DNA of 64,000 nucleotides from Candidatus Hodarchaeota archaeon (GCA_048886685.1 JBHLKM010000005.1:74958-138957); one strand, 5' to 3'; counted from the first letter of the stretch, positions 49,362 through 64,000 are shown. Notes: generated from the sequence alone by a model not told the origin. Translations and numbers: made by a program.

Positions 49362-50033
49362 TTATATCTTTTTACGTAATATATAAATCGAAATAAATAA
49401 AAACCAAATGAGGATTGAAAACATGACAACCCATTCATATAAAGGCATGATAGTATATACACTTCTCCCAAATGAGCCACAAATTTCTGGAAAAGCCTGA
49501 CAAAAATTGGTGATGAAAAATGGTATAAGGAAAGAGCCAAATATACCAGCTATCACAAAACTAAAATTAGATACTGATTTAGTATATTTTGAACTTTTTA
49601 ACATTAAAAAACCAAAAAGTATACAATCTACAAGTCCCCCAATCCAACTTAAAAGAGCGAATAAACCATGCAAATCACTAAATTTTCCTCCCGATACAGC
49701 TCCAGTTAATACAGCGATTACTGAAGTTATAATTCCAGCACCTATTGCAATTTTTCTCACGTTTTCATTCACAATTTCGTCTTTTAAAGATCTCCCAACA
49801 TAGACAATAAAAGGTATTGCAATTGTATTCGAAATTATTAATCCACTTCTTGAAAATATTCCTCCAGGATGGTGTCCTAACACACTTATTGATTTCTTCC
49901 ACATCACATAATCTGGAGATAACAAAAGGGCTATAATAAAACCAAAAAAGCCAACTATAAATGTTATCAACCCAAAGACATAACTTGGTATAACCTTGAA
50001 TAGATTGTCGAAGAATTCATTTATACTTTTCAT
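49362..50033 (-). CDS. DUF998-like membrane protein
   Basis: PDY....ISVLG, LHG, YEW; paralogous to the next gene. Confidence 0.65.
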   Translation of the reverse strand: MKSINEFFDNLFKVIPSYVFGLITFIVGFFGFIIALLLSPDYVMWKKSISVLGHHPGGIFSRSGLIISNTIAIPFIVYVGRSLKDEIVNENVRKIAIGAGIITSVIAVLTGAVSGGKFSDLHGLFALLSWIGGLVDCILFGFLMLKSSKYTKSVSNFSFVIAGIFGSFLIPFFITNFCQAFPEICGSFGRSVYTIMPLYEWVVMFSILIWFLFISIYILRKKI

Positions 50034-50118
50034 AATATTCTGTCAACCTTTTATTCTTAATAAAAATTTCCATATTTAATTAAAAATCAAACTCAAAAAG
50101 AATATCATCTTTTTAGAT

Positions 50119-50769
50119 TTAGATTTTATTATATATCATATAAAGAGAAACGATTAAATACCAGAGGATCACTAAAATTGTATTTATCCATTCAAGTGAG
50201 GGTAGGATTATCATTAGATACCTCAAAGTTGGTAAAAGGTGTAAATAAAATAGAATCATTAATAAAATTAGAGTAAATGAGACCAAAAAACCGAAATATG
50301 CGAGGATTTTTTGATATTTGGAATCTTTAAGGAGTAGAATATTGAAAAATGTGATATAAAATAATCCTGTTTGCCAACTTATCATAGCAAAGACACCATG
50401 TATTAGGGCAATAATAGGATTGGATCCACAAAATGCTCCTAAAATGATAAAACTTATACATGAAATAGACGCTAAAATTACAGTACTTTTTCTCATTTTT
50501 TCACTGATTTCTTCCTTATTAAAGGTACCCCCTAAATAGATTATAAATAAGAGAGCAAATGTTCCAGAAAAAACATTACCAATTTGAAAAAACAAGCCTC
50601 CAGGTCCCTTACACAATGAGCTTACTGCTTTTCTAGTAAAATTATATCCGGGATACATTAAATATGAGATTAAATCTCCTAAAAAACCAAATGTTATGGA
50701 TAATAATCCATAGAACGCTCCTGGAATGACACGATTAATTTTTTTGGCAATTAAATCAAATTTCTCCAT
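50119..50769 (-). CDS. DUF998-like membrane protein (tandem paralog)
   Basis: PGY....VSSL, IHG, LEW. Confidence 0.65.
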   Translation of the reverse strand: MEKFDLIAKKINRVIPGAFYGLLSITFGFLGDLISYLMYPGYNFTRKAVSSLCKGPGGLFFQIGNVFSGTFALLFIIYLGGTFNKEEISEKMRKSTVILASISCISFIILGAFCGSNPIIALIHGVFAMISWQTGLFYITFFNILLLKDSKYQKILAYFGFLVSFTLILLMILFYLHLLPTLRYLMIILPSLEWINTILVILWYLIVSLYMIYNKI

Positions 50770-50923
50770 AATTGTCTATTTGAAATTGATACAGGAGGCT
50801 TTGTAATAATTTATTGGAATAATAATTATAAATTTAATTGCTATAATATAAAAACCATTTTATACTTCAGAGATTACAATTTTAAATCAATCAGAAAAAA
50901 TTAGGATTTTAGAATCGAAGAAA

Positions 50924-52465
50924 TTAAGGTTTAGGTAATTTCACTATAAAAGTCGAACCTTTATTTCGTCCACCTGATTCAACCAAAATCTTTCCATCAT
51001 GGAGTTCCACAATTTCTTTTGAAATATATAATCCAAGACCCGATCCCTCACTTTCAACATCAACACCCTTACCATAACGTTCGATTTGGCCAAACTTTTG
51101 AAATAAACTCTTCATTTCTTTTTTAGTTAACCCAATACCATTATCCTCTATAGAAATCTTTACCCAAGGATCGTTTTCATCTAGAATGATATGGATCTTG
51201 CCTTTAGGAGGAGTGTATTTAATAGCGTTTGAAAGTAGATTAGTAATTACTTGTTCAATCTTAATTCGATCAATTAATACATTCAATTCTTTAGGGTGTT
51301 CATAATCAATACTAATATCGCGTTTATCAGCCCAATATTGTAAATCGCCAATACATTCACCTATAATATTAACAATATTTTCATTTTGTAGATGTAAGTT
51401 TAATTTATTAGCTTCAATGTTTGATGCATCAAGCAGATTTTCGATTAATATCTTTAATTTTTGTCCTCCTCTATGAATCATCTCAACAAATTTTAAAGCA
51501 TCTTCTCCAATTTGTCCCTTTAAATTATTTAGAAGAAATTGAGAAGCAGCAGCTACAGAATTTAAGGGTGTTTTTAACTCATGTGAAGTTGTTGTTAGTA
51601 ATTCACTTTTAATTTGATTTATTTCTAGTAGTTTCTTATTCTCATCAATAATTAGTCTTTCTGCATTTTTGCGTTCTGTAATATCTCTTGAAATTGTAAG
51701 GACTTTTTGTTTACCCTCTTTATCAATAAACATTTTACCATTAGATTCTATAAGAATATAATGACCTAGTTTGTGTTTAATTCTTGCTTCAACAGAGCCT
51801 TCATCCTGTTCAAAACCATCTTTATATGGTTTTATAACTTTTTCACGATCATCCGGGTGTACAAATTCTATTCCATTTTTTCCAATTACTTCTTCAACAG
51901 TATAGCCTAGTAAATTCAAGAGAGGTTTTCTATTGGCATATTCAAACTGAAATTTATCGTTAAAAATTAGAATTAAATCATTAGCATTTTCCGCAATTAA
52001 ACTATGCATTTCTTCGGAATGTTTTAATTCTTTCTCGATTTTTATCTGGGCTGTAATATCTCTTATTGCTACAATAAACCTATCGTTCCCATTAGTTTTA
52101 AAATGTTTACCATTGGCTGATGCGAAAATTACATTTCCATTTTTATGTAATAACCTATATAATGGAACCGAAATCATTTTCTTAGTTTTATATGCGTTCT
52201 TTATTGCTTCTGCTATTTTTAAAACATCTTCATGATAAATATAATCAAGTGAGCTTTTGCCAACTAGTTCAGCAGGATGATAACCCATGATATCATAACA
52301 CTGAGGGCTAACATAAGTTACAATGGCTTTTAAATCAACTTCTAGTATGATGTCTGTAAGATTATTAATTAAGGTTCGATACTTTTCTTCCGATTCTTTT
52401 AACTTTTCTTCAGCTTCCTTTCGTTCATCCATTTTCATTGATTTAATTTCATCTTTTCGTGGCAT
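50924..52465 (-). CDS. Cytoplasmic PAS-PAS sensor histidine kinase
   Basis: SHELKTPL, NAIKY, DNGIG, GSGLGL; paralog of 17970..19505. Confidence 0.93.
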   Translation of the reverse strand: MPRKDEIKSMKMDERKEAEEKLKESEEKYRTLINNLTDIILEVDLKAIVTYVSPQCYDIMGYHPAELVGKSSLDYIYHEDVLKIAEAIKNAYKTKKMISVPLYRLLHKNGNVIFASANGKHFKTNGNDRFIVAIRDITAQIKIEKELKHSEEMHSLIAENANDLILIFNDKFQFEYANRKPLLNLLGYTVEEVIGKNGIEFVHPDDREKVIKPYKDGFEQDEGSVEARIKHKLGHYILIESNGKMFIDKEGKQKVLTISRDITERKNAERLIIDENKKLLEINQIKSELLTTTSHELKTPLNSVAAASQFLLNNLKGQIGEDALKFVEMIHRGGQKLKILIENLLDASNIEANKLNLHLQNENIVNIIGECIGDLQYWADKRDISIDYEHPKELNVLIDRIKIEQVITNLLSNAIKYTPPKGKIHIILDENDPWVKISIEDNGIGLTKKEMKSLFQKFGQIERYGKGVDVESEGSGLGLYISKEIVELHDGKILVESGGRNKGSTFIVKLPKP

Positions 52466-52896
52466 AAAATCACTTTTTTTTCCTAAAATAGAGATTTTCT
52501 TTTAGATTTAATTAACTATTTTCCTAGGATCTTTGATTGGTGTGGATGAGGTAATTTAGAAGCTGTTTTATATGGTTTCTAAAGAACTTTAGAATGATTG
52601 TTTTCTTATTACACTCCTACATTTTTAATAGTTTTATTCGTTTTAATCTTGATGAGAATGATATTTGTTCTATGATTTGAAACGTACTTACTTTTTTTCT
52701 AAGTCTAATTGACATTTTTTTAAGAATTTTTTCAATGGGAAAGAGGTGGGAGAGGGATTAAGGTTTTAAATCAAATAGTTATTTGGAAATACTTTGAAAT
52801 ACCACAATGTTCTGAATAGTTATTTATTTCTGTCATATCAAAAAGATTTAATTAATAATTCTAATTATAATAAAATATGCTTATAGTATAATTTTA

Positions 52897-52967
52897 GCGC
52901 TCGTAGTATAGTGGTAATATGCTAGCTTCCCAAGCCAGCGTCCCGGGTTCAATTCCCGGCGGGCGCA
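52897..52967 (+). tRNA. tRNA-Gly(CCC), intronless
   Basis: GCGCTCG/CGGGCGC acceptor, TTCCCAA anticodon loop, GGTTCAATTCC T-arm. Confidence 0.95.
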
Positions 52968-53088
52968 TTTTAAATATTAATGCTTTGAATAGAAAAAACC
53001 GAAAATTCTTGAACTAATTCTTATGTAATGGAATTAATATTGCAAAAAACAGATTTAGAATAGTGATAATTATCTTTAATCTAACCTT

Positions 53089-53352
53089 CTAGTTTCCCAG
53101 ATTGTCCAGAAATAAGTTAAGCGAAGGTGAATCGTTTTCTATTTCTTTACAAAATACAGAAATTTCACCAAATAGAGAAGCTGCTTTTTGAAAAACTCCA
53201 TTTTTCTTATATTTTTCTGCTTCTTCCATATCTAACATTAATTCTATTAACGGTTTAAATAATTCTAGAATCTCATAAACATTTTTTAAGATATTTTTTA
53301 CAAGATGAATTTTTCTATTAATCTTATCATCCATAGTTGACATACAATTCAC
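53089..53352 (-). CDS. Small hypothetical helical protein
   Basis: ORF only. Confidence 0.55.
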   Translation of the reverse strand: MNCMSTMDDKINRKIHLVKNILKNVYEILELFKPLIELMLDMEEAEKYKKNGVFQKAASLFGEISVFCKEIENDSPSLNLFLDNLGN

Positions 53353-53641
53353 AACTTATTTTTTTACTTAAATCCATTTTTGAATAATAATTATATTTTA
53401 TTTATTAAATGTTTTCGTTTTTATTTTGCTAATATTGTGTTTGTATACAAAAAGATCTTACAATTTAAGTTGAAATTATATTTGTGGGAAAATTCTCAAT
53501 CAAAACATATTTTTGAGGTATTTTATTGAAAAAGAAATATTTCAATTTTTTACATATTTCTATGAATTTATCACATTAAAGGAACTCTACATTCATTTGG
53601 GGGAAAAATGATGAATAAAAAGAGGAATATTTATGTAAAGA

Positions 53642-54310
53642 TTAGTTTAATTTTTCTACCTTTCGTATTAAATCTCTAAGATGTAAATTTCCCATCCCGA
53701 ATTTTACCCGAAATGAAAACATCAAAACCAAATTGAATTTTATGCCATTTATCTCCATAAATTTAGAAATGAATTTCTCACTGTTTTCCAATTCCAAATA
53801 CATTTTCTTCACACTCACTAAGTTCCTTTCACTTCTAACCTCAAATTCTTTCATCGTGTTAAATAAAGTGTTTTGAGGTAATGAAGAATACAAGACTTTC
53901 CCTTCTTCATTGAATATGCCACTACCGATTATCTCTTTATCATCAACACAATCTCTTAATAGTTGAATGATGTTTTGAAATATCGCCATAGATGTGAAAT
54001 CATTTTCTTCGATATCAGTATCTTCCTTTTTTTCTAATACATTTACGCTGCTCTCATAAAGTTCCATTTTTGAAAATTCGAAATCTACTGTTTGATAACC
54101 TCTGACGACAAAATTTTTATCAACAAAAGCCTGAAAACTATGTTCACAATTCAATCCTGAAGGTATTGATACAGTAGTTAATTGTTTACTTTGGTTTATA
54201 ATTTTACCCGGTAACCTCAATTTTCGACTTTCTTTACAAATGGGGCATCTTGTAAGGATTTCTTCAAAAAATCTGTCAGAATTAGTTCTTATTCCATTTG
54301 GTAATGTCAT
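53642..54310 (-). CDS. Zinc-ribbon plus roadblock/profilin-like fold protein (Lokiarchaeia family)
   Basis: CPIC...CEHSFQAFVDKNFVVRGYQ; IIGSGIFNEEGKVLYSSLP. Confidence 0.65.
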   Translation of the reverse strand: MTLPNGIRTNSDRFFEEILTRCPICKESRKLRLPGKIINQSKQLTTVSIPSGLNCEHSFQAFVDKNFVVRGYQTVDFEFSKMELYESSVNVLEKKEDTDIEENDFTSMAIFQNIIQLLRDCVDDKEIIGSGIFNEEGKVLYSSLPQNTLFNTMKEFEVRSERNLVSVKKMYLELENSEKFISKFMEINGIKFNLVLMFSFRVKFGMGNLHLRDLIRKVEKLN

Positions 54311-54778
54311 TATTAGGTCCTTTCCTTATTTATTAAAGATATAACAGATTTAGGGATTTTAAGTTTGAAAATCCTAATGATTAAAAATCTCTTTTGTGTT
54401 CAAAATTAACTTTATTATGTAATCTTTTTTAGTAATTTAAATTTTTGTCTTAACAATCACATACGAATGGTAGTAATTAGTAATTTATATATAAATAATG
54501 TGCTCAAAAATTTAAAACGATCAAAAGCACGAAATAGTCTTACAACAAAAAGATTTAAATACAGATTCTATTATAATTCTTCTACTATACCAAGTATAAA
54601 GACACAAAAAAATAGAAAATTTACCACAAATAATCATTCAAAAGGAATATAAAAATGAAATTTTTAAAAAAAATACAGAAAAATGTCAGGGTGGTTTGAA
54701 TTCCACTCATCTTTTTTATTATTTTGTGTTGGTAGGAAATAGAAGTGAGAAAAGTTAGCAATATAGACAAGTTTAGGA

Positions 54779-55600
54779 ATGAAGTTAATGATAATCATGG
54801 AAAATTATCAAAATTCTAAGGAAAACCCGCTAGCAATGGAAATACTAGGAATTGGTTTAGTTAAAATTTCACAAATAAATATAGCAGCTAAATTTGATGT
54901 ACTCTTCCAGAAAGGAATAGGAGTACCACTTATTCAAAATGTTATTGAATTATATAAAAAAGAAATTATTCATAAAAAGAAGGGAAATTCAATAATTCCC
55001 TTAGAAAAGTTCACAATTTTTATTCACTATTTTGAAAATCACAATCATGATATATTAGTTATAATTTATATGGAAGAGAAAGATAGTTCAGTAAATTTTT
55101 CTAAATTATATTTTTTATCCAGAAATATAAATAGGAAATTTCAGTTAAATGAACCAGTATCAAGAATAATAGATGAATTTGATACAGCTGTGGAAATTCC
55201 CAGAACAGATGGGATCATAGCGATTTTTGTTATAGGTTCAGCAGGAAGTCCATACATATCTAAAATTAATAAGGGTAGATCTGAAATTGCAGATCATGAA
55301 GTTCACATAGGGGGCTTCATTTCCGCCTTATTATCATTTTCAAACACTATTATTGGAGAAGAAACAGGAGCTAAATTAAAAGAAATTAACTTTGGTAATC
55401 AACAATTCTATGTTATATCGAAGAGCAATGTGATATTTGCTTTTTTGGTAGAAAATATGAACTCATTAATTCAAAGATACATGTATTTACTTGCTGATGA
55501 ATTCCTCTACCAATTTAAAAATCTTATAAAAGATTTTAACGGGGATATAACCCCATTCAACTGTTTTGAAGAAAAAATAAATCAATATTTTATAATATAA
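54779..55600 (+). CDS. Longin-like domain protein (possibly tandem), first gene of the che cluster
   Basis: IIAIFVIGSAG, GGFISALLSFS, LKEINFG, FNGDITPF. Confidence 0.65.
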   Translation: MKLMIIMENYQNSKENPLAMEILGIGLVKISQINIAAKFDVLFQKGIGVPLIQNVIELYKKEIIHKKKGNSIIPLEKFTIFIHYFENHNHDILVIIYMEEKDSSVNFSKLYFLSRNINRKFQLNEPVSRIIDEFDTAVEIPRTDGIIAIFVIGSAGSPYISKINKGRSEIADHEVHIGGFISALLSFSNTIIGEETGAKLKEINFGNQQFYVISKSNVIFAFLVENMNSLIQRYMYLLADEFLYQFKNLIKDFNGDITPFNCFEEKINQYFII

Positions 55601-55618
55601 AAACGAGGTATAAAGAAA

Positions 55619-56155
55619 ATGATTCAAGACCAGGAATATAAAGGTATAAACCAAGTTTCCATCCTTATATTTCAAATTGGATGGGAGCAGTTCGTTATTG
55701 ACCTTCTTGATGTTAAAGAAATAATTCAAGCAGGGCAAATAAGAAAATTGCCAAAAAGCTTAGATTACATAGATGGAATTTATAATTACAGAGGAGAGAT
55801 AATACACGTTGTTAATTTAAAAAAAAAGTTAAACCTGAATGAGTATATGCTATATCGTTCTAAATACTCCTCTACAGAAGAAGAAAATTATAGTAACACA
55901 AAGAGATACATAATTATTTTAAAAGTGGATAATAACCTTATTGGATTTTATGTTGATCGCATTGTAAACATCGATCACATCGACATCAACGAAATTGTAG
56001 AACTTAGTCCTATTTTTCAAACAAGTGTAGCTATGGAATACATTAAAGGAGTTATAAATTTTAAGGAAAGACCAAGAATTATGCTTGATTTAGGCAAGAT
56101 TCTTAACGAAGTTGAGAAATTTAAAATCCAACAAGATCTGTCATCTTTGACATAA
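55619..56155 (+). CDS. cheW: Chemotaxis coupling protein CheW
   Basis: VKEII, LPKS..YIDGIYNYRGEIIHVVNL, GFYVD, YIKGV. Confidence 0.92.
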   Translation: MIQDQEYKGINQVSILIFQIGWEQFVIDLLDVKEIIQAGQIRKLPKSLDYIDGIYNYRGEIIHVVNLKKKLNLNEYMLYRSKYSSTEEENYSNTKRYIIILKVDNNLIGFYVDRIVNIDHIDINEIVELSPIFQTSVAMEYIKGVINFKERPRIMLDLGKILNEVEKFKIQQDLSSLT

Positions 56156-56189
56156 AAATAAATTTAAAATAAAAAATGGAGTTGATTAA

Positions 56190-56585
56190 ATGACAAACGA
56201 AAAGAAAAAGGTTTTGATTGTGGATGACGCCCAATTTACTCGGAACATGCTAAAAAGTATCATTAGTAAGATTCAACTAATCGAAGTTATTGGTGAAGCT
56301 GCTAATGGTGTTGAAGCTATCGCCTTGTATAAAAAATTAAATCCTGATTTGGTTACTATGGATTTAGTTATGCCAGAAAAAGGGGGTATTGAAGCAACAG
56401 AAGAGATCTTAAAAATTAATCCGAAAGCGTTAATCGTTGTTGTATCAGCGTTGGGACAAGAAGCTCTAGTCCTTGAAGCAGCAAAGAAGGGAGCAAAAGA
56501 TTTTATACAAAAACCTTTCAAGACTGAACAAATACTTGAGGTAATGGATCGCATACTAAAAAATAAGAAAGAAGTTAAAAATTAA
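56190..56585 (+). CDS. cheY: Chemotaxis response regulator CheY
   Basis: VDDAQFTR, TMDLVMP, VSALGQ, QKPF (Firmicutes/archaeal type). Confidence 0.93.
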   Translation: MTNEKKKVLIVDDAQFTRNMLKSIISKIQLIEVIGEAANGVEAIALYKKLNPDLVTMDLVMPEKGGIEATEEILKINPKALIVVVSALGQEALVLEAAKKGAKDFIQKPFKTEQILEVMDRILKNKKEVKN

Positions 56586-56613
56586 ATTGTAAATTAAATA
56601 ATAGGGTGATTAA

Positions 56614-58698
56614 GTGGCAACTAACGACGATATTAAGCTTTTCATTAGTGAAGCAGAAGATCTTATTCAGAAGACTGAGGATGAGATTCTAAAACTAGAA
56701 GAGAATCCAAAAAATCCTAAACCAATTCAGGAACTTTTTTTTACATTTCACACACTTAAGGGCCTTACAGCCATGGCTGGATTTGAAAACCTTTCAAAAT
56801 TTTGTCATCACTTTGAAACCTTTTTAGAAAATACTAAAGATAAAGAGGTATCAACGAAAAAGCGAACAGATTTTATTGATATGTTATTTGAAAGTTTAGA
56901 TGTACTTCGTAATGTCTTAAAAAAAGTAAAAAAGGGAGATTTATCAGATATTGATGCCAAATTTGTAGAAGAGATAAAAGGAAGTTTTGATAATTTTGAA
57001 GCAGAATACGATATAACTTTTATCCAACCAATTTCTACAGATGAAATTACGAAAATTTTAAATGACACGCAGAAAAAACCTTATAAGATATATATCCGTT
57101 TAGAAGATACATGCGTTTTCAAAAAAGTAAGATTGTTTATCATCTTTCGAGCATTAAATGGAATTGGACGGATTTGTTGGACAAATCCTGCTCCAGAATC
57201 TTTAGAGAAAGCAATTTTAAAGAATGAATTTGAAATCTTTTATATCAGTCAAAAAAATAAAACTGAAATTTCTCATGTTTTAGACGAAATATTAGAGATT
57301 GAAAATATTGTTATTTCAACTTTAAAACCTAAAGAATTTCATGATATAATAGCAAATCTTAAGGAAAAATGGGAGAATGAACAATCAGTACCAGCAGACC
57401 ATGAAATTGAGGAGGAAAGCATCTATGAAGAGGAAGTAATAGATGAAGAACTTGAACGAGTTAGTAATATTTTAGAGGATTACTCAGACGATAGCATTAA
57501 AATTACTAGTGTAAAGGTAAATATAGAAAATTTAGAGGAATTAATGAATTATTTTGGAGAACTAGTTATAATGAAGAATCACATCAGCCAACTTCTAAAA
57601 GATAAACAAGATAGAGCCATAAATAGACTATTTGATAAAATGGACAAACCCTTTTTGGATATCCAAGAGATACTTTTTAAATTAAAGCTAATAAGAGTTG
57701 AATCAACTTTTCGAAAGTATAAAAGACTTGTTCGAGATGTAGCAAATGAAACAAGTAAAAAATTAAGATTAATTTTACAAGGGACAAATGTAGAGATTGA
57801 CCGAAAGATATTGGAAGAACTAAATTCTCCTTTAGTTCATCTCATACGAAATGCTATATATCATGGAATTGAATTACCAGCTGAAAGAAAAAAAAAGGGT
57901 AAGACCGATCTAGGAATTTTAAGGTTAAAAACATATAGAAAAGCAGGTTCTATTTATATTGAGATACAAGATGATGGGGCAGGTTTAGATTATGTCAAAA
58001 TCAAAGAGAAAATTGTTGCAAAAGGTTATTATGATCGTGAAGAAGTTAAAGAATTAACTGACGAAATCCTAAATAAATTTATTCTAATGCCAGGATTTTC
58101 GACTTTATCTGATGCTGACATAATTTCAGGAAGAGGAATGGGGCTAGCTATAGTTGCTGAGAAGATAAAAGAACTAGGAGGGGATTTTCTTATTGAATCG
58201 CAAAAAGATATTGGAACTAGATTTACTTTGGTAGTACCTTTTACACGGGCAATACTGAGGGCACAATTATTACAAGTTTCAAAGGATTTATTCGCAATCC
58301 CCACTGAGAATATTAAGCAAATTTATTTCTTCGATCAGAATAAGGTAGAATATATAGAAGGTAAGCAATATTATAAGATAGATTCGAGATTAATACCCGT
58401 CATCCATTTAGACCAGCACTTACGAATGGTAGACCTAATTGAAACAAACTCACATAAAAAAATAGCTGTTTGGTGTCAAAAAGATGAGGAAAATTCTGCT
58501 ATACTAGTTGCGGATAAACAACTTCAACAATTAGATGTGGTTGTAAAACCCTTTACATCCAGCTATTCTGATTCTCGTGATATTTTAGGATCTACAATTA
58601 CAGGAGAGGGTTCGATTTGTCTCATTCTAGATGCTTTGAGTATCATATCAAGACAGTCATCTGAATATGAAGTATCTTTAATAAATAAATTAAATTAA
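56614..58698 (+). CDS. cheA: Chemotaxis histidine kinase CheA
   Basis: HPt FHTLKG, P2, dimerisation domain, HLIRNAIYHG, DDGAG, PGFST, SGRGMG, C-terminal CheW-like P5. Confidence 0.95.
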   Translation: MATNDDIKLFISEAEDLIQKTEDEILKLEENPKNPKPIQELFFTFHTLKGLTAMAGFENLSKFCHHFETFLENTKDKEVSTKKRTDFIDMLFESLDVLRNVLKKVKKGDLSDIDAKFVEEIKGSFDNFEAEYDITFIQPISTDEITKILNDTQKKPYKIYIRLEDTCVFKKVRLFIIFRALNGIGRICWTNPAPESLEKAILKNEFEIFYISQKNKTEISHVLDEILEIENIVISTLKPKEFHDIIANLKEKWENEQSVPADHEIEEESIYEEEVIDEELERVSNILEDYSDDSIKITSVKVNIENLEELMNYFGELVIMKNHISQLLKDKQDRAINRLFDKMDKPFLDIQEILFKLKLIRVESTFRKYKRLVRDVANETSKKLRLILQGTNVEIDRKILEELNSPLVHLIRNAIYHGIELPAERKKKGKTDLGILRLKTYRKAGSIYIEIQDDGAGLDYVKIKEKIVAKGYYDREEVKELTDEILNKFILMPGFSTLSDADIISGRGMGLAIVAEKIKELGGDFLIESQKDIGTRFTLVVPFTRAILRAQLLQVSKDLFAIPTENIKQIYFFDQNKVEYIEGKQYYKIDSRLIPVIHLDQHLRMVDLIETNSHKKIAVWCQKDEENSAILVADKQLQQLDVVVKPFTSSYSDSRDILGSTITGEGSICLILDALSIISRQSSEYEVSLINKLN

Positions 58699-58759
58699 AT
58701 TTTTTTTAAAAACAAATAATAAGTTTCACTGAATTAATAAAAATTTGGAGGAAAAAGAA

Positions 58760-60769
58760 ATGGGTTTTAAGAAAGTTAGTCAAGACGAATTAAAGACAAA
58801 TAGTGGTCCAGGATTTCTCGGTATGCCTATAAGAGAAGTAGGAAAAATTGTACAAACTAAAAAAAGAGAGAAAAAAATAGATTCAAATTCACTTGGCTCA
58901 ATCTCAGAGATACTGATTCTAAATGAAGAATTTTTAGAATATAAATATCAAAACACTGGGAAAAGGAACGCTTTAGCGGGTAATGGAAATATAGTAGTTT
59001 TCAACAACTCACTTAAAGATAGAATATGGGATGCTTTTTTAAAATTTACAGGAACTCAATTTGATAATCAAGATTCAGAAAAAGGTATGCATTTGGGAAT
59101 TTTTGAACCTAATTCAAACAAAATTTTGAAATATGAAATTGTTAATTCAGAAATATTACCAGATTTAGTGTCTGTAAATGAAAGCATAGAAAATCTGAGC
59201 CAAGATATTAAAAATGTAGGAAATGACTATAATGACGAAGAAGACAAAATAAGTAATAACCAAAAAAATCATATGTTGTTATTAGGAAAAGAAAATAAAG
59301 TAAAGTTTTCTATACTTGTAGAAAATAAATCTTCTTCTGTCTTAGAAAATATTAGACTTAAAAAACAATTCTCAAATAATTTCTATGATATAGACTTTAA
59401 AGGTTCAGTAAGTAAAAACATTGAAATCACTAGTAATTACATTGAATGTCCTATTAAGAATCTAAATCCAGGAGAGAAAATTGAAGTGATTCTTCATGCA
59501 AATATATTTCCAAAAAGGAAAGAAAATATTAGTACTGGAAGAATAGAGGTTTCATTTAATTTAAAGAATCAAATCATCTCAGAAGTGGAAATCAACCATT
59601 TCTCTGCATATTCTCATGCTATGCATGCTATTCGAAAAGTAGAGAAAGATCATGCTCCAAATCACTGGGATTGTTCTTTAATATTCGGAAATCGTAGTGA
59701 TTTCAAGATGAAATTAAACTCAATCTTGATTTTAGATAAATCTAAAAAGAATAAAATATTAGAACTTGATTTTAGTGACAAAATGGTAATAACAGTCCCA
59801 GGAGAGAGCTATAAAACGGAACATTTTGATTATCAAGATGAAAAAGAACCAACCTTTTCAAGAAAAGTAGATTATTCTGTCGATTATAAAGTTGAGAAAA
59901 ATTCTATGATTACAGTTCAAGTTGAAAATAGTTTATTTAAAGTAGCTAATGCATTGATCAAAAAGAAAATTGAAGAGCAGGAAATTAAGTCATTTGAAGA
60001 ATCAAAAGTTAACACTGAATTTATTGTGAGGAATCGAGGGACTATGCCAATAAAAGGGATTATAGCTCAAGAAAAAATACCTCAAGACTTTTTACCACCT
60101 AGGGATGTCTCAAATTTTCAATTTTTAAATTCTGCAGGAGAATTAAAACTTGATGATATAGCTTTAAAAATTAGTCCTGATGATGACGATCCAACACACG
60201 AACACGTTTTAGAATTGAATGTTAACTTAGAAACTAATCATAGAAGTAATTTAATAGGAGTAGATGACTTTTTAGAGGTTAAATACCCTTTAACTGCCGT
60301 AACTCCTAATTATGAAAAAGATTATGACTTTCTATTGGAGATACAATCCTATTATTCAAAATTCTTAGAGTCTGAACAAAATGAATATTATGTAATCACA
60401 GATAATATCTCTGGTATGGATAAATCCGCGTTACAAATTACTCACAAACGTCGTAAATTAATGATAGGAAAAGAAATCTTTCCTGGAAGGGACAGCAATG
60501 AATTTGCTATTTATATAACTGCAAAAAATGGTTCAAACATAAAATTATCAGATGTAAATGTTACTGACACATTCCCAGATTCGTTTGAATTAGTTTCTGC
60601 AAATATTGACCACAAACTTAGCAAAGTTGATAAGTCGGGTGAACGTAAAATATCTTTCAATTTAGATCTTTTACAACCATATCAAGAGAGAGAAATAATG
60701 TACTATTTAAAAAACATTACAGGAAAAGAGATTAAATTTTCAGAATTAGAATCATTTTTTATTGGTTAA
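58760..60769 (+). CDS. Uncharacterised beta-rich protein with DUF11/Ig-like repeats, no signal peptide or TM
   Basis: VRNRGTMPIKGIIAQEKIPQDF and AKNGSNIKLSDVNVTDTFPDSFELV; GGAGG upstream of ATG at 58760. Confidence 0.6.
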   Translation: MGFKKVSQDELKTNSGPGFLGMPIREVGKIVQTKKREKKIDSNSLGSISEILILNEEFLEYKYQNTGKRNALAGNGNIVVFNNSLKDRIWDAFLKFTGTQFDNQDSEKGMHLGIFEPNSNKILKYEIVNSEILPDLVSVNESIENLSQDIKNVGNDYNDEEDKISNNQKNHMLLLGKENKVKFSILVENKSSSVLENIRLKKQFSNNFYDIDFKGSVSKNIEITSNYIECPIKNLNPGEKIEVILHANIFPKRKENISTGRIEVSFNLKNQIISEVEINHFSAYSHAMHAIRKVEKDHAPNHWDCSLIFGNRSDFKMKLNSILILDKSKKNKILELDFSDKMVITVPGESYKTEHFDYQDEKEPTFSRKVDYSVDYKVEKNSMITVQVENSLFKVANALIKKKIEEQEIKSFEESKVNTEFIVRNRGTMPIKGIIAQEKIPQDFLPPRDVSNFQFLNSAGELKLDDIALKISPDDDDPTHEHVLELNVNLETNHRSNLIGVDDFLEVKYPLTAVTPNYEKDYDFLLEIQSYYSKFLESEQNEYYVITDNISGMDKSALQITHKRRKLMIGKEIFPGRDSNEFAIYITAKNGSNIKLSDVNVTDTFPDSFELVSANIDHKLSKVDKSGERKISFNLDLLQPYQEREIMYYLKNITGKEIKFSELESFFIG

Positions 60770-60813
60770 ATCAAATTATTTAAAAAAAAAGAAGAAAAAC
60801 TGGAGGAAAAATA

Positions 60814-61665
60814 ATGAATTTACAGTTTTATGAAACAATACAAGATAAGTCAAAAAAATATTTGACATATTTAATTGACCAGATATTGCCAAAATTCACA
60901 ATCAGTGAATTTAAATATTTTTTAGAAGATGTAACAGAGAATACTAGTAAAACCAGTAAGGGAAGAAAGGGAACAAATGAAGAACAAACAGTAGAATTTA
61001 TCAAAACTGGTGATGACAATGAAAAATTTGCAGATTTATCAAAATTAGATGAAAATCAAATAAAGACTCTATTTCAAATTTTCATCAGTAGGGAAATTAA
61101 TGACAAAATGGCAGTGAGATGGCGATTTTATCAATATATAAAATATCACCGAGGTCTAAATATAAAAGTTATAAAACTTAATAGAACATCTGAGCATTTC
61201 ATTGATTTCATTATTGAAACAGAAGAAAATGAAAAATTAATTGTTTCATGCCATGATATTCTGGAATTAAATAGCTTTAAGGAGGTTTTAAATAAAACTC
61301 CGGAGTTTGCCAAAAATCAAAAATTGAACCCTGATAGGATGATTTTTTCTGTTTACAAATCATTTCGAAACATACCAATTGAAGAGCCGTTCAAAATCGA
61401 AAACAAAGAGATAACTCCAGAGTTATGGATCGAATGGATTGAAGAAAATCTTCCTTTTAATAAAGAAGATCTTTTAATAGTCAATAATTCAGAATTAAAA
61501 CTAGCAGGATTTAACTTTACTAGTACGGAGGATTTGCTTAATTACGTATACTATAATTCGAAGGGTGGTCAAATTTCAATTTTTAAACAATCAGATTTTT
61601 TTACTGAAGCCTCTGATAATGAAGCTGAAATAGAATTACTTTGGAAAGGAATTATGATTAAATAA
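60814..61665 (+). CDS. Hypothetical protein in che cluster (possible degenerate PD-(D/E)xK fold)
   Basis: GGAGG SD; HFIDFIIETEENEKLIVSC. Confidence 0.55.
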   Translation: MNLQFYETIQDKSKKYLTYLIDQILPKFTISEFKYFLEDVTENTSKTSKGRKGTNEEQTVEFIKTGDDNEKFADLSKLDENQIKTLFQIFISREINDKMAVRWRFYQYIKYHRGLNIKVIKLNRTSEHFIDFIIETEENEKLIVSCHDILELNSFKEVLNKTPEFAKNQKLNPDRMIFSVYKSFRNIPIEEPFKIENKEITPELWIEWIEENLPFNKEDLLIVNNSELKLAGFNFTSTEDLLNYVYYNSKGGQISIFKQSDFFTEASDNEAEIELLWKGIMIK

Positions 61666-61697
61666 TATACAAAATAAGAAGGTAAAAGGTAATAAAA

Positions 61698-63677
61698 ATG
61701 ATAAAAAGTGAATATGAAAAAATTGAATATGGAGAAAATATAACTGCTGTTATTATAGAAGTTCAACATGAGAAATATCTAATTGAAGTTGAGAATGTCA
61801 AAGAGATATATCCACCTGGAGAATCTATAATTCCAGTGCCATTATCAGAAAAATCAATTGTCGGTGTCATTAACATCAGAGGAGAGATTTATTCCATTAT
61901 ATCATTACGGCATAATATTTTTGAAGATAGTGTAGATTATGGTTTAAATGAGCATTCAAGGATTTTACTTTTGGAATGGGAAGATTTAAATATTGCCTTA
62001 CTAGTGGACTCAGTAATCGGTGTTAGAGAATTTCCAATTTCAATTTTTAAACAGCAAGGTACAATTGTAAAAACCAATATAGATTTTAAATTTATAAAAT
62101 TAACAGGTGTTTTTCAAGATGAACCATTTATTCTTTTAGATTTGGATGCTTTAATCCAACCTTACACTAAGGCTTCCGAAAGAAGAATTGAAAAGAAAAC
62201 TAACGTAATCCCTATAGTACCGGAAAAACCAGAAGTTATACCTAAAAAAGCTAAAAAAGTTATAGAACCTGAAATAAGTTATACGGAATCTACCGTCATT
62301 CTCCCACAATCATCTAAAATGCCAAAATTAACAAAGATCCCTAATGTTGAAAAAATTGAATTGTCAGCTGATCAAAAAGATATCCTGAGAGAAATGGGGA
62401 ATATAGGAACTGGAAATGCAGTTACAGCATTATCACGACTCATCAAAAAGAAAATTGATGTAACTCTTACAGATGTAGGAATTATCTCTTTTGATCAATT
62501 ATCAGATCAGTTTGGTGGACCTAAGGAGAGGGTATGTGGAATTTTTTGTCATTTAGATGAACCTTCCCAATCTACTATATTGAATATTTTTGAGATGAAA
62601 CCTTTAATGAGTTTAATCGCAACTTTAGCTGGAAAAAAATCAAAAATTGATCCTAATAAAGTGAAAACTAAAAAAGATCTTGATGAATTCGCAATTTCAA
62701 CAATTACGGAAATGGGAAACATTATGGCGGGACACTATGCATCAGCATTAGCAGATTTATTGGAAACTAAATTAATGATCGATATACCAGAATTTGCAAT
62801 GAGTAATGCAGGTGAATTGGGGGAATTTCTCTCTCAAGAGCTTAATTCGATTGCTGACTTTATAATTATTATTAAAACATCTGTAAAGGTTTCTGATTTA
62901 AAATTAAAAGGTATTTTCTTTTTAATCCCAGGCATTAGAACTTTAAATATGTTTTTCAATAAACTTGGAATTGAACAGGAAATATCTGTTGGAAATTTAA
63001 AGGATAGCCAAGAATCAAAACAATTAGATGTTAACAAGTTGAAACTCACAGAACTTCAGAGAGATGCCCTACAAGAAGTTGGAAATATAGGTGCTGGAAA
63101 TGCTGCAAACGCTTTAGCTCAAATGATTAATAAAAGAGTTGACATTAATATTCCATTAGTAGAAATGGTTGAACTGGATGACTATGCAAATAAAATTAGT
63201 AAAAAAGATGAAAAACTTCTAGTTGCTTGGAGTAATATTATTGGAAAAACGAGAGCAACTGTTCTTACAATGTTTAATGTTAAAGATGCAATTGATATAA
63301 CCTCGATAATCGTTGATGATCCCGGTAAAAAGAAAATTGATTTAAGAAAAACTATTTCCAAGGCAGATGATTTTCCAGAACTATATAAAAGCGCTATTTC
63401 AGAATTGGGGCATATTTTAGGAAGTCATTATGTTAGTGCTATAGGAGATCTTTTAGGTATACGTTTAATGACCGAACCCCCTGATATGAGTGTGGATACT
63501 GGTCAACAACTATTTAGTATATTGAAAGAAGAAATAGGGCTCTTAAAGAAATTATCTCTGGTAATTACCACAAGTGTTATTATTAAAGATATTGAAATTG
63601 TAGGTACATTCTTATTTATTCCAAGTCTCGATACTTTACAAGATCTTTTAGACGCTTTACTAAATTTCTACTCTTAA
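61698..63677 (+). CDS. CheW-CheC-CheC fusion protein
   Basis: N-terminal CheW (VPLS..SIVGVINIRGEI, LLVDSV), Pro/Lys linker, CheC motifs EMGNIG, EMGNIM, EVGNIG, ELGHIL. Confidence 0.9.
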   Translation: MIKSEYEKIEYGENITAVIIEVQHEKYLIEVENVKEIYPPGESIIPVPLSEKSIVGVINIRGEIYSIISLRHNIFEDSVDYGLNEHSRILLLEWEDLNIALLVDSVIGVREFPISIFKQQGTIVKTNIDFKFIKLTGVFQDEPFILLDLDALIQPYTKASERRIEKKTNVIPIVPEKPEVIPKKAKKVIEPEISYTESTVILPQSSKMPKLTKIPNVEKIELSADQKDILREMGNIGTGNAVTALSRLIKKKIDVTLTDVGIISFDQLSDQFGGPKERVCGIFCHLDEPSQSTILNIFEMKPLMSLIATLAGKKSKIDPNKVKTKKDLDEFAISTITEMGNIMAGHYASALADLLETKLMIDIPEFAMSNAGELGEFLSQELNSIADFIIIIKTSVKVSDLKLKGIFFLIPGIRTLNMFFNKLGIEQEISVGNLKDSQESKQLDVNKLKLTELQRDALQEVGNIGAGNAANALAQMINKRVDINIPLVEMVELDDYANKISKKDEKLLVAWSNIIGKTRATVLTMFNVKDAIDITSIIVDDPGKKKIDLRKTISKADDFPELYKSAISELGHILGSHYVSAIGDLLGIRLMTEPPDMSVDTGQQLFSILKEEIGLLKKLSLVITTSVIIKDIEIVGTFLFIPSLDTLQDLLDALLNFYS

Positions 63678-63785
63678 ATTTATTCTTTTCTAAAAATATA
63701 TTTAATATATTTTTTTTTTCAATTTTAAGAAAAGTTTTTGAAACTTAAAACAAGTATTTTGAGCCCAAAAAAAGATGAACGAATT

Positions 63786-64000
63786 ATGTTAAGAACTGGT
63801 TATTACGATTATATATATAAGGTAGATGGAGAAACAATAAAATTAAAACCAGAAAAAATTTTTGATCCTTCAGGAGTATATTTAATCGTAGATAAAGAGT
63901 TAAAACTCATATGGATTTGGGCAGGTAGCCATTCTCGTTTATTTCATAGGTATATGGCTGCGAACTGGGCTGGGAAATTAAAAACTAAAAAAAAATTCTA
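63786..64000 (+). CDS. Gelsolin/villin-like domain protein (partial, runs off window)
   Basis: Manual translation MLRTGYYDYIYKVDGETIKLKPEKIFDPSGVYLIVDKELKLIWIWAGSHSRLFHRYMAANWAGKLK...; matches the gelsolin-domain pattern V(Y/F)L.D....IWIW.G..S. Confidence 0.72.
   Translation, partial: MLRTGYYDYIYKVDGETIKLKPEKIFDPSGVYLIVDKELKLIWIWAGSHSRLFHRYMAANWAGKLKTKKKF

Follow-up and report, generated by a model that had tools for sequence, protein, structure and literature searches.

In Euryarchaeota, chemotactic signals reach the archaellum when phosphorylated CheY (CheY-P) acts through CheF on ArlCDE. In Myxococcus xanthus, the Frz system inverts polarity through the GTPase MglA and the Roadblock GTPase-activating protein (GAP) MglB (PMC9481161). 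A Lokiarchaeial set of cheA, cheB, cheC, cheD, cheR, cheW and cheY genes, accompanied by methyl-accepting chemotaxis proteins (MCPs), has already been published; it is patchy among Asgard metagenome-assembled genomes (MAGs) and absent from P. syntrophicum, while Ca. L. ossiferum has putative chemoreceptor arrays together with actin-filled protrusions (Rodrigues-Oliveira et al. 2022, PMC9834061). That paper makes no mention of accessory genes in the che cluster, whether gelsolin, longin, GTPase or any other, and a literature search found no paper describing linkage of Asgard che genes with gelsolin, longin, Ig-like, orphan or GTPase genes. The subject of this analysis is a chemosensory operon containing such genes, found in a 64,000-nucleotide (nt) stretch from a Candidatus Hodarchaeota archaeon (GCA_048886685.1 JBHLKM010000005.1:74958-138957). 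This whole stretch is referred to as the window and corresponds to C5:74958-138957 of the source genome, G000; in these working labels C, G, L, f and g followed by a number denote a contig, genome, fetched locus, family and genus.

The operon consists of 14 co-directional genes spread over 15.4 kb, in the order longinX, CheW, CheY, CheA, IgX, unk283, CheW-CheC-CheC, Gel, CheR, CheB, CheD, CheC, a Roadblock-Ras GTPase (Robl-Ras) and CheB2; judged by its layout, the run is probably one chemosensory operon, the first half of which is held by the window. It resembles the archaeal and Bacillus-type Che systems in its full phosphorelay and adaptation set, its MCP, a CheA with the order Hpt-P2-dimerisation-HATPase-CheW, an intact CheY site and CheC phosphatase motifs. 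It differs from them in having five lineage-specific genes set among the che genes (tandem longin, DUF11 Ig-like, PD-(D/E)XK-like orphan, gelsolin and Roadblock-Ras), in the fusion of CheW to two CheC domains, in the presence of two CheB genes, and in that neither G000 nor the relatives with the cluster yielded a CheF, archaellin, ArlD/E or platform protein. Because no motor is detectable and genes of cytoskeletal type are kept across relatives, the operon may steer the cell skeleton, not a motor. The explanation preferred here, to which we would give about an even chance, is a complete phosphorelay of which the lineage-specific accessory proteins are an integral part and whose output would be non-archaellar, likely directed to a GTPase/actin module. 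Relative to Ca. L. ossiferum, with which comparison is by gene set and not by gene order, the Lokiarchaeial che genes are shared, whereas 15 MCPs are given for that organism (PMC9834061) as against one in G000.

The absence of detectable motor genes was established at the level of the whole genome. G000 comprises 4.42 Mb in 47 contigs with a G+C content of 30%, an estimated completeness of 100% and contamination of 8.4%; its description as a Loki-type archaeon in an initial annotation of the window is right, since its close protein relatives are labelled as Promethearchaeota, Lokiarchaeota or Helarchaeota MAGs. A Pfam search of the genome returned no match to CheF-arch, Arch_flagellin, Arch_fla_DE or T2SSF, and these motor models do give matches in the four archaeal genomes that served as a positive control. 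The three T2SSE matches (a partial 62-bit match in a 720-amino acid (aa) protein without an adjoining platform gene, a PIN-ATPase and HerA) are not ArlI-like. A complete archaellum, CheF and MCP set, which would have spoken for conventional chemotaxis, was thus not detected; of the receptor, CheF and archaellum genes suggested as search targets, only a single MCP came to light. In a comparison sample of 149 genomes of the class, CheF was present in one (G107, which has a different CheA type) and in 0/44 genomes with the cluster described here. T2SSF was detected in 4/149, the only che-positive case being G008, with a match at the cut-off, and archaellin in 0/5 further near-complete che-positive genomes. 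As no archaellum, type-IV-filament platform or CheF can be detected in these genomes, the output appears not to be archaellar, and by gene content the accessory genes are part of a chemosensory system of non-archaellar type.

The second line of evidence is conservation. Twenty che loci, representing at least eight genera in families f1, f2, f3 and f7, were fetched, and 16 G000 proteins were mapped onto them. The order longinX-CheW-CheY-CheA-IgX-unk283-CheW-CheC-CheC-Gel is found in nearly all 20 loci at identities down to ~40%, and is kept across at least eight genera and three families; longinX orthologues adjoin CheW in 17 of the 20, and IgX always follows CheA directly. CheA orthologues occur in 49/149 genomes of the class and in 22/47 of the same genus, a patchiness that agrees with that published, and 44 of the 49 (including G000) carry the CheA type seen here, at an identity of at least 48%. 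Orthologues of Gel, defined by an E-value below 1e-25, are present in 39 of these 44 genomes; of the five that lack one, four are fragmentary or cut at a contig end and the fifth is G009. CheA-negative genomes in the 149-genome sample have no Gel orthologue, only weaker one-domain gelsolin paralogues elsewhere. The neighbours proposed in the initial annotation to be worth testing for synteny, the longin-like and gelsolin-like genes, are therefore kept beside che genes across families, with che-type Gel confined to CheA-positive genomes.

A similarly tight distribution is evident for unk283. In a separate phylum-wide sample of 300 genomes, a profile of this family matched exactly the 15 CheA-positive genomes of family f1, and matched 0/23 CheA-positive genomes of six other families and 0/262 CheA-negative genomes. 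Five che clusters of other Asgard families (f19 and f27; CheA 24-28% identical) have no accessory genes detectable by tblastn. In three loci of genus g5, Gel and Robl-Ras directly follow CheW-CheC-CheC and the cluster holds no CheR, CheB, CheD or CheC; the accessory genes thus vary less than the adaptation genes. A family f2 locus (L049, G133:C67:2500-22499) holds a distant Lokiarchaeial che cluster, with CheA at 26% identity, in which weak homologues of IgX (23%) and unk283 (28%) lie between CheD and a CheW-CheC gene, with no longinX, Gel or Robl-Ras; since weak homologues of both are kept there, IgX and unk283 may be an older accessory pair. Four genomes (G045, G093, G116 and G128) have a second protein of 550-580 aa that matches only the Hpt-P2 part of CheA, at 39-44% identity.

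The cluster also appears to be gained or lost as a unit. In the che-negative congeners G055 and G040, two DUF998 genes that form the upstream flank in G000 adjoin the aEF-2 and formyltransferase genes of the downstream flank, the missing block being the PAS histidine kinase, the Zn-ribbon gene and the 14 operon genes. At the same site in G042, fragments of longinX (residues 4-78 and 239-273) and of CheW (residues 3-88) remain, which points to decay in place. The closed genome G092 has the cluster in two parts, with the break between unk283 and CheW-CheC-CheC.

The gene order, strands and intergenic gaps given in the initial annotation were reproduced from open reading frame (ORF) coordinates: the gaps within the window are 18, 34, 28, 61, 44 and 32 nt, followed by 108 nt before Gel, the 61-nt gap between CheA and IgX becoming 46 nt if a TTG start is used. 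Its suspicion that the operon continues past the window edge proved correct, as a further 7 kb runs from Gel to CheB2. The start of CheR overlaps the stop of Gel, followed by CheB and CheD after gaps of 18 nt each, CheC after 32 nt, a 319-aa protein joining a Roadblock domain to a Ras-family GTPase after 6 nt, and the second, longer CheB after 70 nt. No gap in the whole operon exceeds 108 nt, and those within the interleaved part are 6-61 nt. CheR, two CheB, CheD and CheC thus form an adaptation set in the same operon, just past the window edge. The report of no MCP, CheB, CheR, CheD, CheF or archaellum gene in the window holds in that none lies at 50000-64000, and searches of the whole genome gave no match to MCPsignal, CheF, archaellin or T2SSF in the rest of it, but the lack of CheB, CheR and CheD is an artefact of the window edge because all three directly follow Gel beyond it. 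With this adaptation set and a dedicated MCP in the genome, the picture of an operon having eukaryote-like genes in place of receptor genes, and without CheB, CheR or CheD, has to be abandoned. CheB2 (L001:15804-17168; C5:143803-145167) is 454 aa long, with ~80 extra residues between its receiver and methylesterase domains relative to the first CheB (381 aa). Convergent with the operon, 3' of CheB2, is an aEF-2 gene (L001:17207-19402; C5:145206-147401, minus strand), one of two EF-2 paralogues; the second is ~35% identical and was present in 5/5 congeners checked.

The core signalling genes in the window were identified through Pfam, which bore out the cheW, cheY, cheA, Ig-like and cheW-cheC-cheC assignments made beforehand, as well as the status of the 283-aa gene, which has no match. 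CheW (55619-56155, plus strand) matches the family of that name with an E-value of 1.1e-26, and CheY (56190-56585, plus strand) is a single receiver domain (Response_reg, E 6.5e-26) with an intact phospho-acceptor pocket (D12, D13, D58, S86 and K108). The Hpt, P2, H-kinase_dim, HATPase_c and CheW domains of CheA (56614-58698, plus strand) are all above cut-off. The CheW-CheC-CheC fusion (61698-63677, plus strand) matches CheW, CheC in three stretches and CheX; its E-x2-N...P sites are intact at residues 338 and 460, and the site at residue 232 is without the proline.

The single MCPsignal gene of G000 (C1:9697-10527; 276 aa, 113.5 bits) encodes a small receptor with N-terminal hydrophobic segments (a weak Pfam 7TM-family match over residues 22-92) and EE/QQ methylation-type motifs, in which Pfam recognises no ligand-binding domain. 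It is preceded by a conserved 105-aa membrane protein gene. As the MCP abuts this ORF in frame, a pseudogene was considered; this was rejected, since other genera also conserve the pair as two distinct ORFs. Homologues of the pair directly precede longinX in genera g4, g5 and g12 and in families f3 and f7, while in the genus of G000 it has been relocated to another locus, where the genes after the MCP are, in turn, HisKA-REC, a single-domain paralogue of the longinX C-domain and a 141-aa gene, with a Zn-ribbon gene next in G000 and G059. Because longin-fold proteins accompany both the receptor and the kinase, their genomic positions argue that they are part of the signalling complex, on either its input or its output side. 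The relocated module in G000 (C1:9379-13349; L057:5380-9350) has the order 105-aa membrane protein, MCP, HisKA-REC, 153-aa longinX C-domain paralogue, 141-aa unknown and a 160-aa protein whose Zn-ribbon is C-terminal; this order is repeated in G059, without HisKA-REC, and in G102, which lacks the Zn-ribbon gene and has no CheA match.

The first gene of the operon, longinX (54779-55600, plus strand; 273 aa), has no Pfam or PDB sequence match. An AlphaFold2 model from an alignment of 27 homologues (predicted local distance difference test score (pLDDT) 83.7, predicted template modelling score (pTM) 0.80) contains two beta-beta-alpha-beta-beta-beta-alpha domains, at residues 24-137 and 146-270. 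Foldseek matched these to Mon1-Ccz1 (E 2.5e-4), TRAPP Bet5/Trs23, bacterial Roadblock/LC7, LAMTOR and AP2 sigma and mu, with a probability of 1.0 for Mon1-Ccz1, TRAPP, LAMTOR, AP2 sigma and LC7 and per-domain template modelling scores of 0.45-0.65; almost all of the best matches are longin/roadblock subunits of small-GTPase regulators and coat adaptors. On this model longinX is a tandem longin/roadblock-fold protein, so the earlier designation of the gene as longin-like stands by fold, with two domains, but not through any sequence-level family match. Upstream and divergent lies ZnRobl (53642-54310, minus strand; 222 aa), which has no Pfam match and carries an N-terminal Zn-ribbon-like site. 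This gene is kept divergently upstream in eight of the 20 loci (L034, L035, L036, L039, L043, L050, L051 and L052). It had been described as Zn-ribbon/roadblock-like; the divergent orientation is confirmed and a Zn-ribbon is plausible because the CxxC...CxH site (C22, C25, C55 and H57) is invariant in nine orthologues, but the roadblock domain found no support, as hhalign against the Robl-Ras and longinX profiles gave probabilities below 1% and a PDB profile search was empty. Further out on the divergent side, at 50924-52465 on the minus strand, is a cytoplasmic sensor kinase of PAS-PAS-HisKA-HATPase architecture; PAS kinases are likewise found beside the che cluster in L034, L038 and L041 and beside the MCP module on C1.

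IgX (58760-60769, plus strand; ~670 aa) has a C-terminal DUF11 repeat (Pfam, E 1.3e-7). Its true start is probably the ATG at 58760, within a 674-aa ORF open from 58745. An atlas feature search led to archaeal DUF11 clusters (score 0.97), and a profile of the protein had no match among PDB sequences. At the N-terminus, encoded at 58760-58830, MGFK, L11 and F(L/I)G-x-P vary little or not at all among 12 orthologues of 33-85% identity, MGFK being invariant; the peptide is placed like the CheY-binding peptides of FliM and FliY, but has no clear sequence match to them. The orphan unk283 (60814-61665, plus strand; 283 aa) belongs to a family with 67 cluster representatives among 1.84 billion proteins. 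Its AlphaFold2 model (pLDDT 86.9) gives middling matches to restriction-endonuclease-fold proteins (VIA Z 6-7.4; Foldseek E ~7e-3), which support a PD-(D/E)XK nuclease-like core in the model and point to no function; its orthologues have no conserved (D/E)xK catalytic motif, and the lists of fold matches, all of them middling, include nothing CheF-like. In Robl-Ras (Pfam Ras, E 3.3e-39) the N-terminal roadblock domain is highly conserved and motifs G1-G5 are intact, GxxxxGK[ST], T187, DxxG, NKxD and ETSA being shared by 11 orthologues; DxxG is followed in these by L, I, K or F, and never by Q. The accessory proteins are taken to be cytoplasmic, and in none of them is there a hydrophobic stretch that could span a membrane.

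Gel (63786-64000 in the window, plus strand, cut by the edge and ending at window-equivalent position 64340; 184 aa) had been annotated as a gelsolin-domain gene. As a single sequence it misses the Pfam Gelsolin model (E 0.16), although it matches an Asgard gelsolin-like PDB chain with an E-value of 5.6e-4; a profile of 17 orthologues does sustain the assignment, matching 7c2f (E 1.8e-7), 2DGel3 (1.4e-5), villin (5.5e-5), CapG (6e-5) and the Loki 2DGel (2.5e-4), as well as the Heimdall 2DGel. The match covers the N-terminal 95 residues, beyond which the YPGxSR motif is invariant and the C-terminal helix conserved. By sequence, Gel is thus a member of the gelsolin/villin family, with a single gelsolin domain and a C-terminal helix. 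The Asgard gelsolins ProGel, 1DGel and 2DGel (PDB 7c2f, 7c2h, 7whf and 7whg) resemble it, as do eukaryotic villin and CapG domains, over the region of the profile match; unlike them, Gel falls below the Pfam threshold, has the YPGxSR motif and the helix, and forms an orthologous group of its own that is found only with CheA. Elsewhere in G000 there are four actin-family genes and at least six gelsolin genes recognisable by Pfam. In the ~110-nt gap before Gel (63678-63785), a run of 8-10 T followed by AATTTT is kept in 7/7 genomes of the genus (G000 and six relatives); within the cluster it could act as an archaeal oligo-T terminator, a TATA-like promoter or both. A promoter/terminator scan found no enrichment, its sigma-70 model not being meaningful for an archaeon.

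The preferred explanation can be drawn out into a scheme in which a complete Bacillus/archaeal-type phosphorelay would begin with the small dedicated membrane MCP driving CheA through CheW, with adaptation by CheR, CheB, CheD and CheC. CheY-P (or CheA) would then act on the longin and Roadblock-GTPase proteins and on Gel, such that a small-GTPase polarity switch and actin turnover would be biased, leading to directional growth of protrusions or a change in shape. Every protein-protein contact in this scheme, together with actin binding by Gel, GTPase regulation and the phenotype, is a prediction from gene content, and so is the proposal in the initial annotation that the phosphorelay may be rewired towards actin or membrane remodelling. 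The proposal is analogous to Frz signalling to MglA and MglB, and an output to a GTPase/actin module of that kind is plausible by analogy with it. Both combine a Che-like pathway with a Ras-like GTPase and Roadblock-fold proteins, here in the form of a Roadblock-Ras fusion and longinX inside the che operon; the likeness is one of analogy. In the present system, by contrast, the GTPase is Ras/Rab-like by Pfam and fused to a roadblock domain, it has Leu, Ile, Lys or Phe at the position of the catalytic Gln, a single operon includes a gelsolin-domain protein while the GTPase is missing from some clusters, and gliding or type IV pilus machinery was not found. In a more specific version, the MCP-CheA-CheY phosphorelay would signal directly to a gelsolin-domain regulator and a Roadblock-Ras GTPase with longin-fold partners, steering actin-based protrusions through a prokaryotic input and a eukaryote-like output; this version is offered tentatively, as less likely than not.

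Several points weigh against the preferred explanation. The compared genomes are related and hence not independent, such that the counts overstate independence. The absence of motor genes comes from Pfam models applied to MAGs, and divergent motor forms could have escaped such a search; moreover, a 2026 paper states that there is an archaellum in the gene set of Ca. L. ossiferum and CheF in some Asgard genomes (PMC13705601). Both longinX and Robl-Ras are wider Lokiarchaeial families, each with a che-linked orthologue group and paralogues in che-negative genomes, the longinX paralogue group being present in most genomes of the class. The operons of G052 and G059 have lost Robl-Ras, with a remnant left in G052, so that it is not an obligatory output, and the cluster of G009 (Helarchaeales) is without longinX and Gel while keeping IgX and unk283. 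The T-run before Gel may end one transcript and start another. A gelsolin fold is no proof of actin binding, and Gel is a divergent member of the family.

These points bear differently on the other explanations that can be given for the locus. If the accessory proteins were input or structural parts of the array, acting as receptor-coupling adaptors, scaffolds or sensors of intracellular state that feed CheA, then the output of CheY-P would lie elsewhere and neither actin nor a GTPase would be controlled. The adjacency of longinX to the MCP in many genera and the longin paralogue travelling with the relocated MCP would fit a receptor-proximal function. Also in favour are the position of IgX and unk283 between CheA and CheW-CheC-CheC, their weak homologues in L049, the dispensability of Robl-Ras in some lineages, and an MCP whose lack of a ligand-binding domain means that input may come from cytoplasmic partners. 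However, this would leave the pathway with no candidate output in genomes without an archaellum, pili or CheF; the strict co-occurrence of Gel with CheA is equally expected of an output. To our knowledge, gelsolin-family proteins are known only as actin regulators. An array role for the accessory proteins is regarded as rather unlikely.

Ordinary archaeal chemotaxis, in which an archaellum or type-IV-filament motor and its adaptor exist but are too divergent for Pfam or are missing from the assemblies, seems improbable. It draws on the scattered archaellum components in ~100 Asgard genomes and the ordered archaellum locus in Ca. L. ossiferum (PMC13705601), on all the genomes being MAGs and on the marginal T2SSF match in G008. 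Yet G000 is estimated to be complete and still has no CheF, archaellin, ArlD/E or T2SSF match, models that succeed in the control archaea find CheF in none and T2SSF in one (marginally) of the 44 cluster-bearing genomes, archaellin is missing from all five near-complete che-positive genomes, and systematic loss from dozens of MAGs is unlikely. That the eukaryote-like genes are merely neighbours, through chance or shared regulation, with no role in chemosensing, is the least credible suggestion and very improbable. Longin, gelsolin and small-GTPase paralogues abound in Asgard genomes, making chance adjacency not rare, and the larger gap and T-run precede Gel; against this, the interleaved order persists across families at ~40% identity with gaps of 6-61 nt, Gel and unk283 occur only with CheA, and gain and loss involve the block as a whole.

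Eukaryotic cells steer by means of small GTPases and actin, and prokaryotes through the action of a CheA-CheY phosphorelay on a rotary motor. These two steering toolkits are genetically joined in the archaeal lineage closest to eukaryotes, in organisms that have no apparent rotary or pilus motor and yet possess an actin cytoskeleton. Even on a weaker reading, the cluster represents a new Che class, four to five of whose core components had not been described before, among them the orphan family unk283, and it provides clear targets for pull-downs and cryo-electron tomography in Lokiarchaeial enrichment cultures. Were CheY-P to act on the gelsolin or the GTPase proteins, the Asgard cytoskeleton would have its first known signalling input, and there would be a concrete model for the rise of directional actin-based behaviour before eukaryotes.

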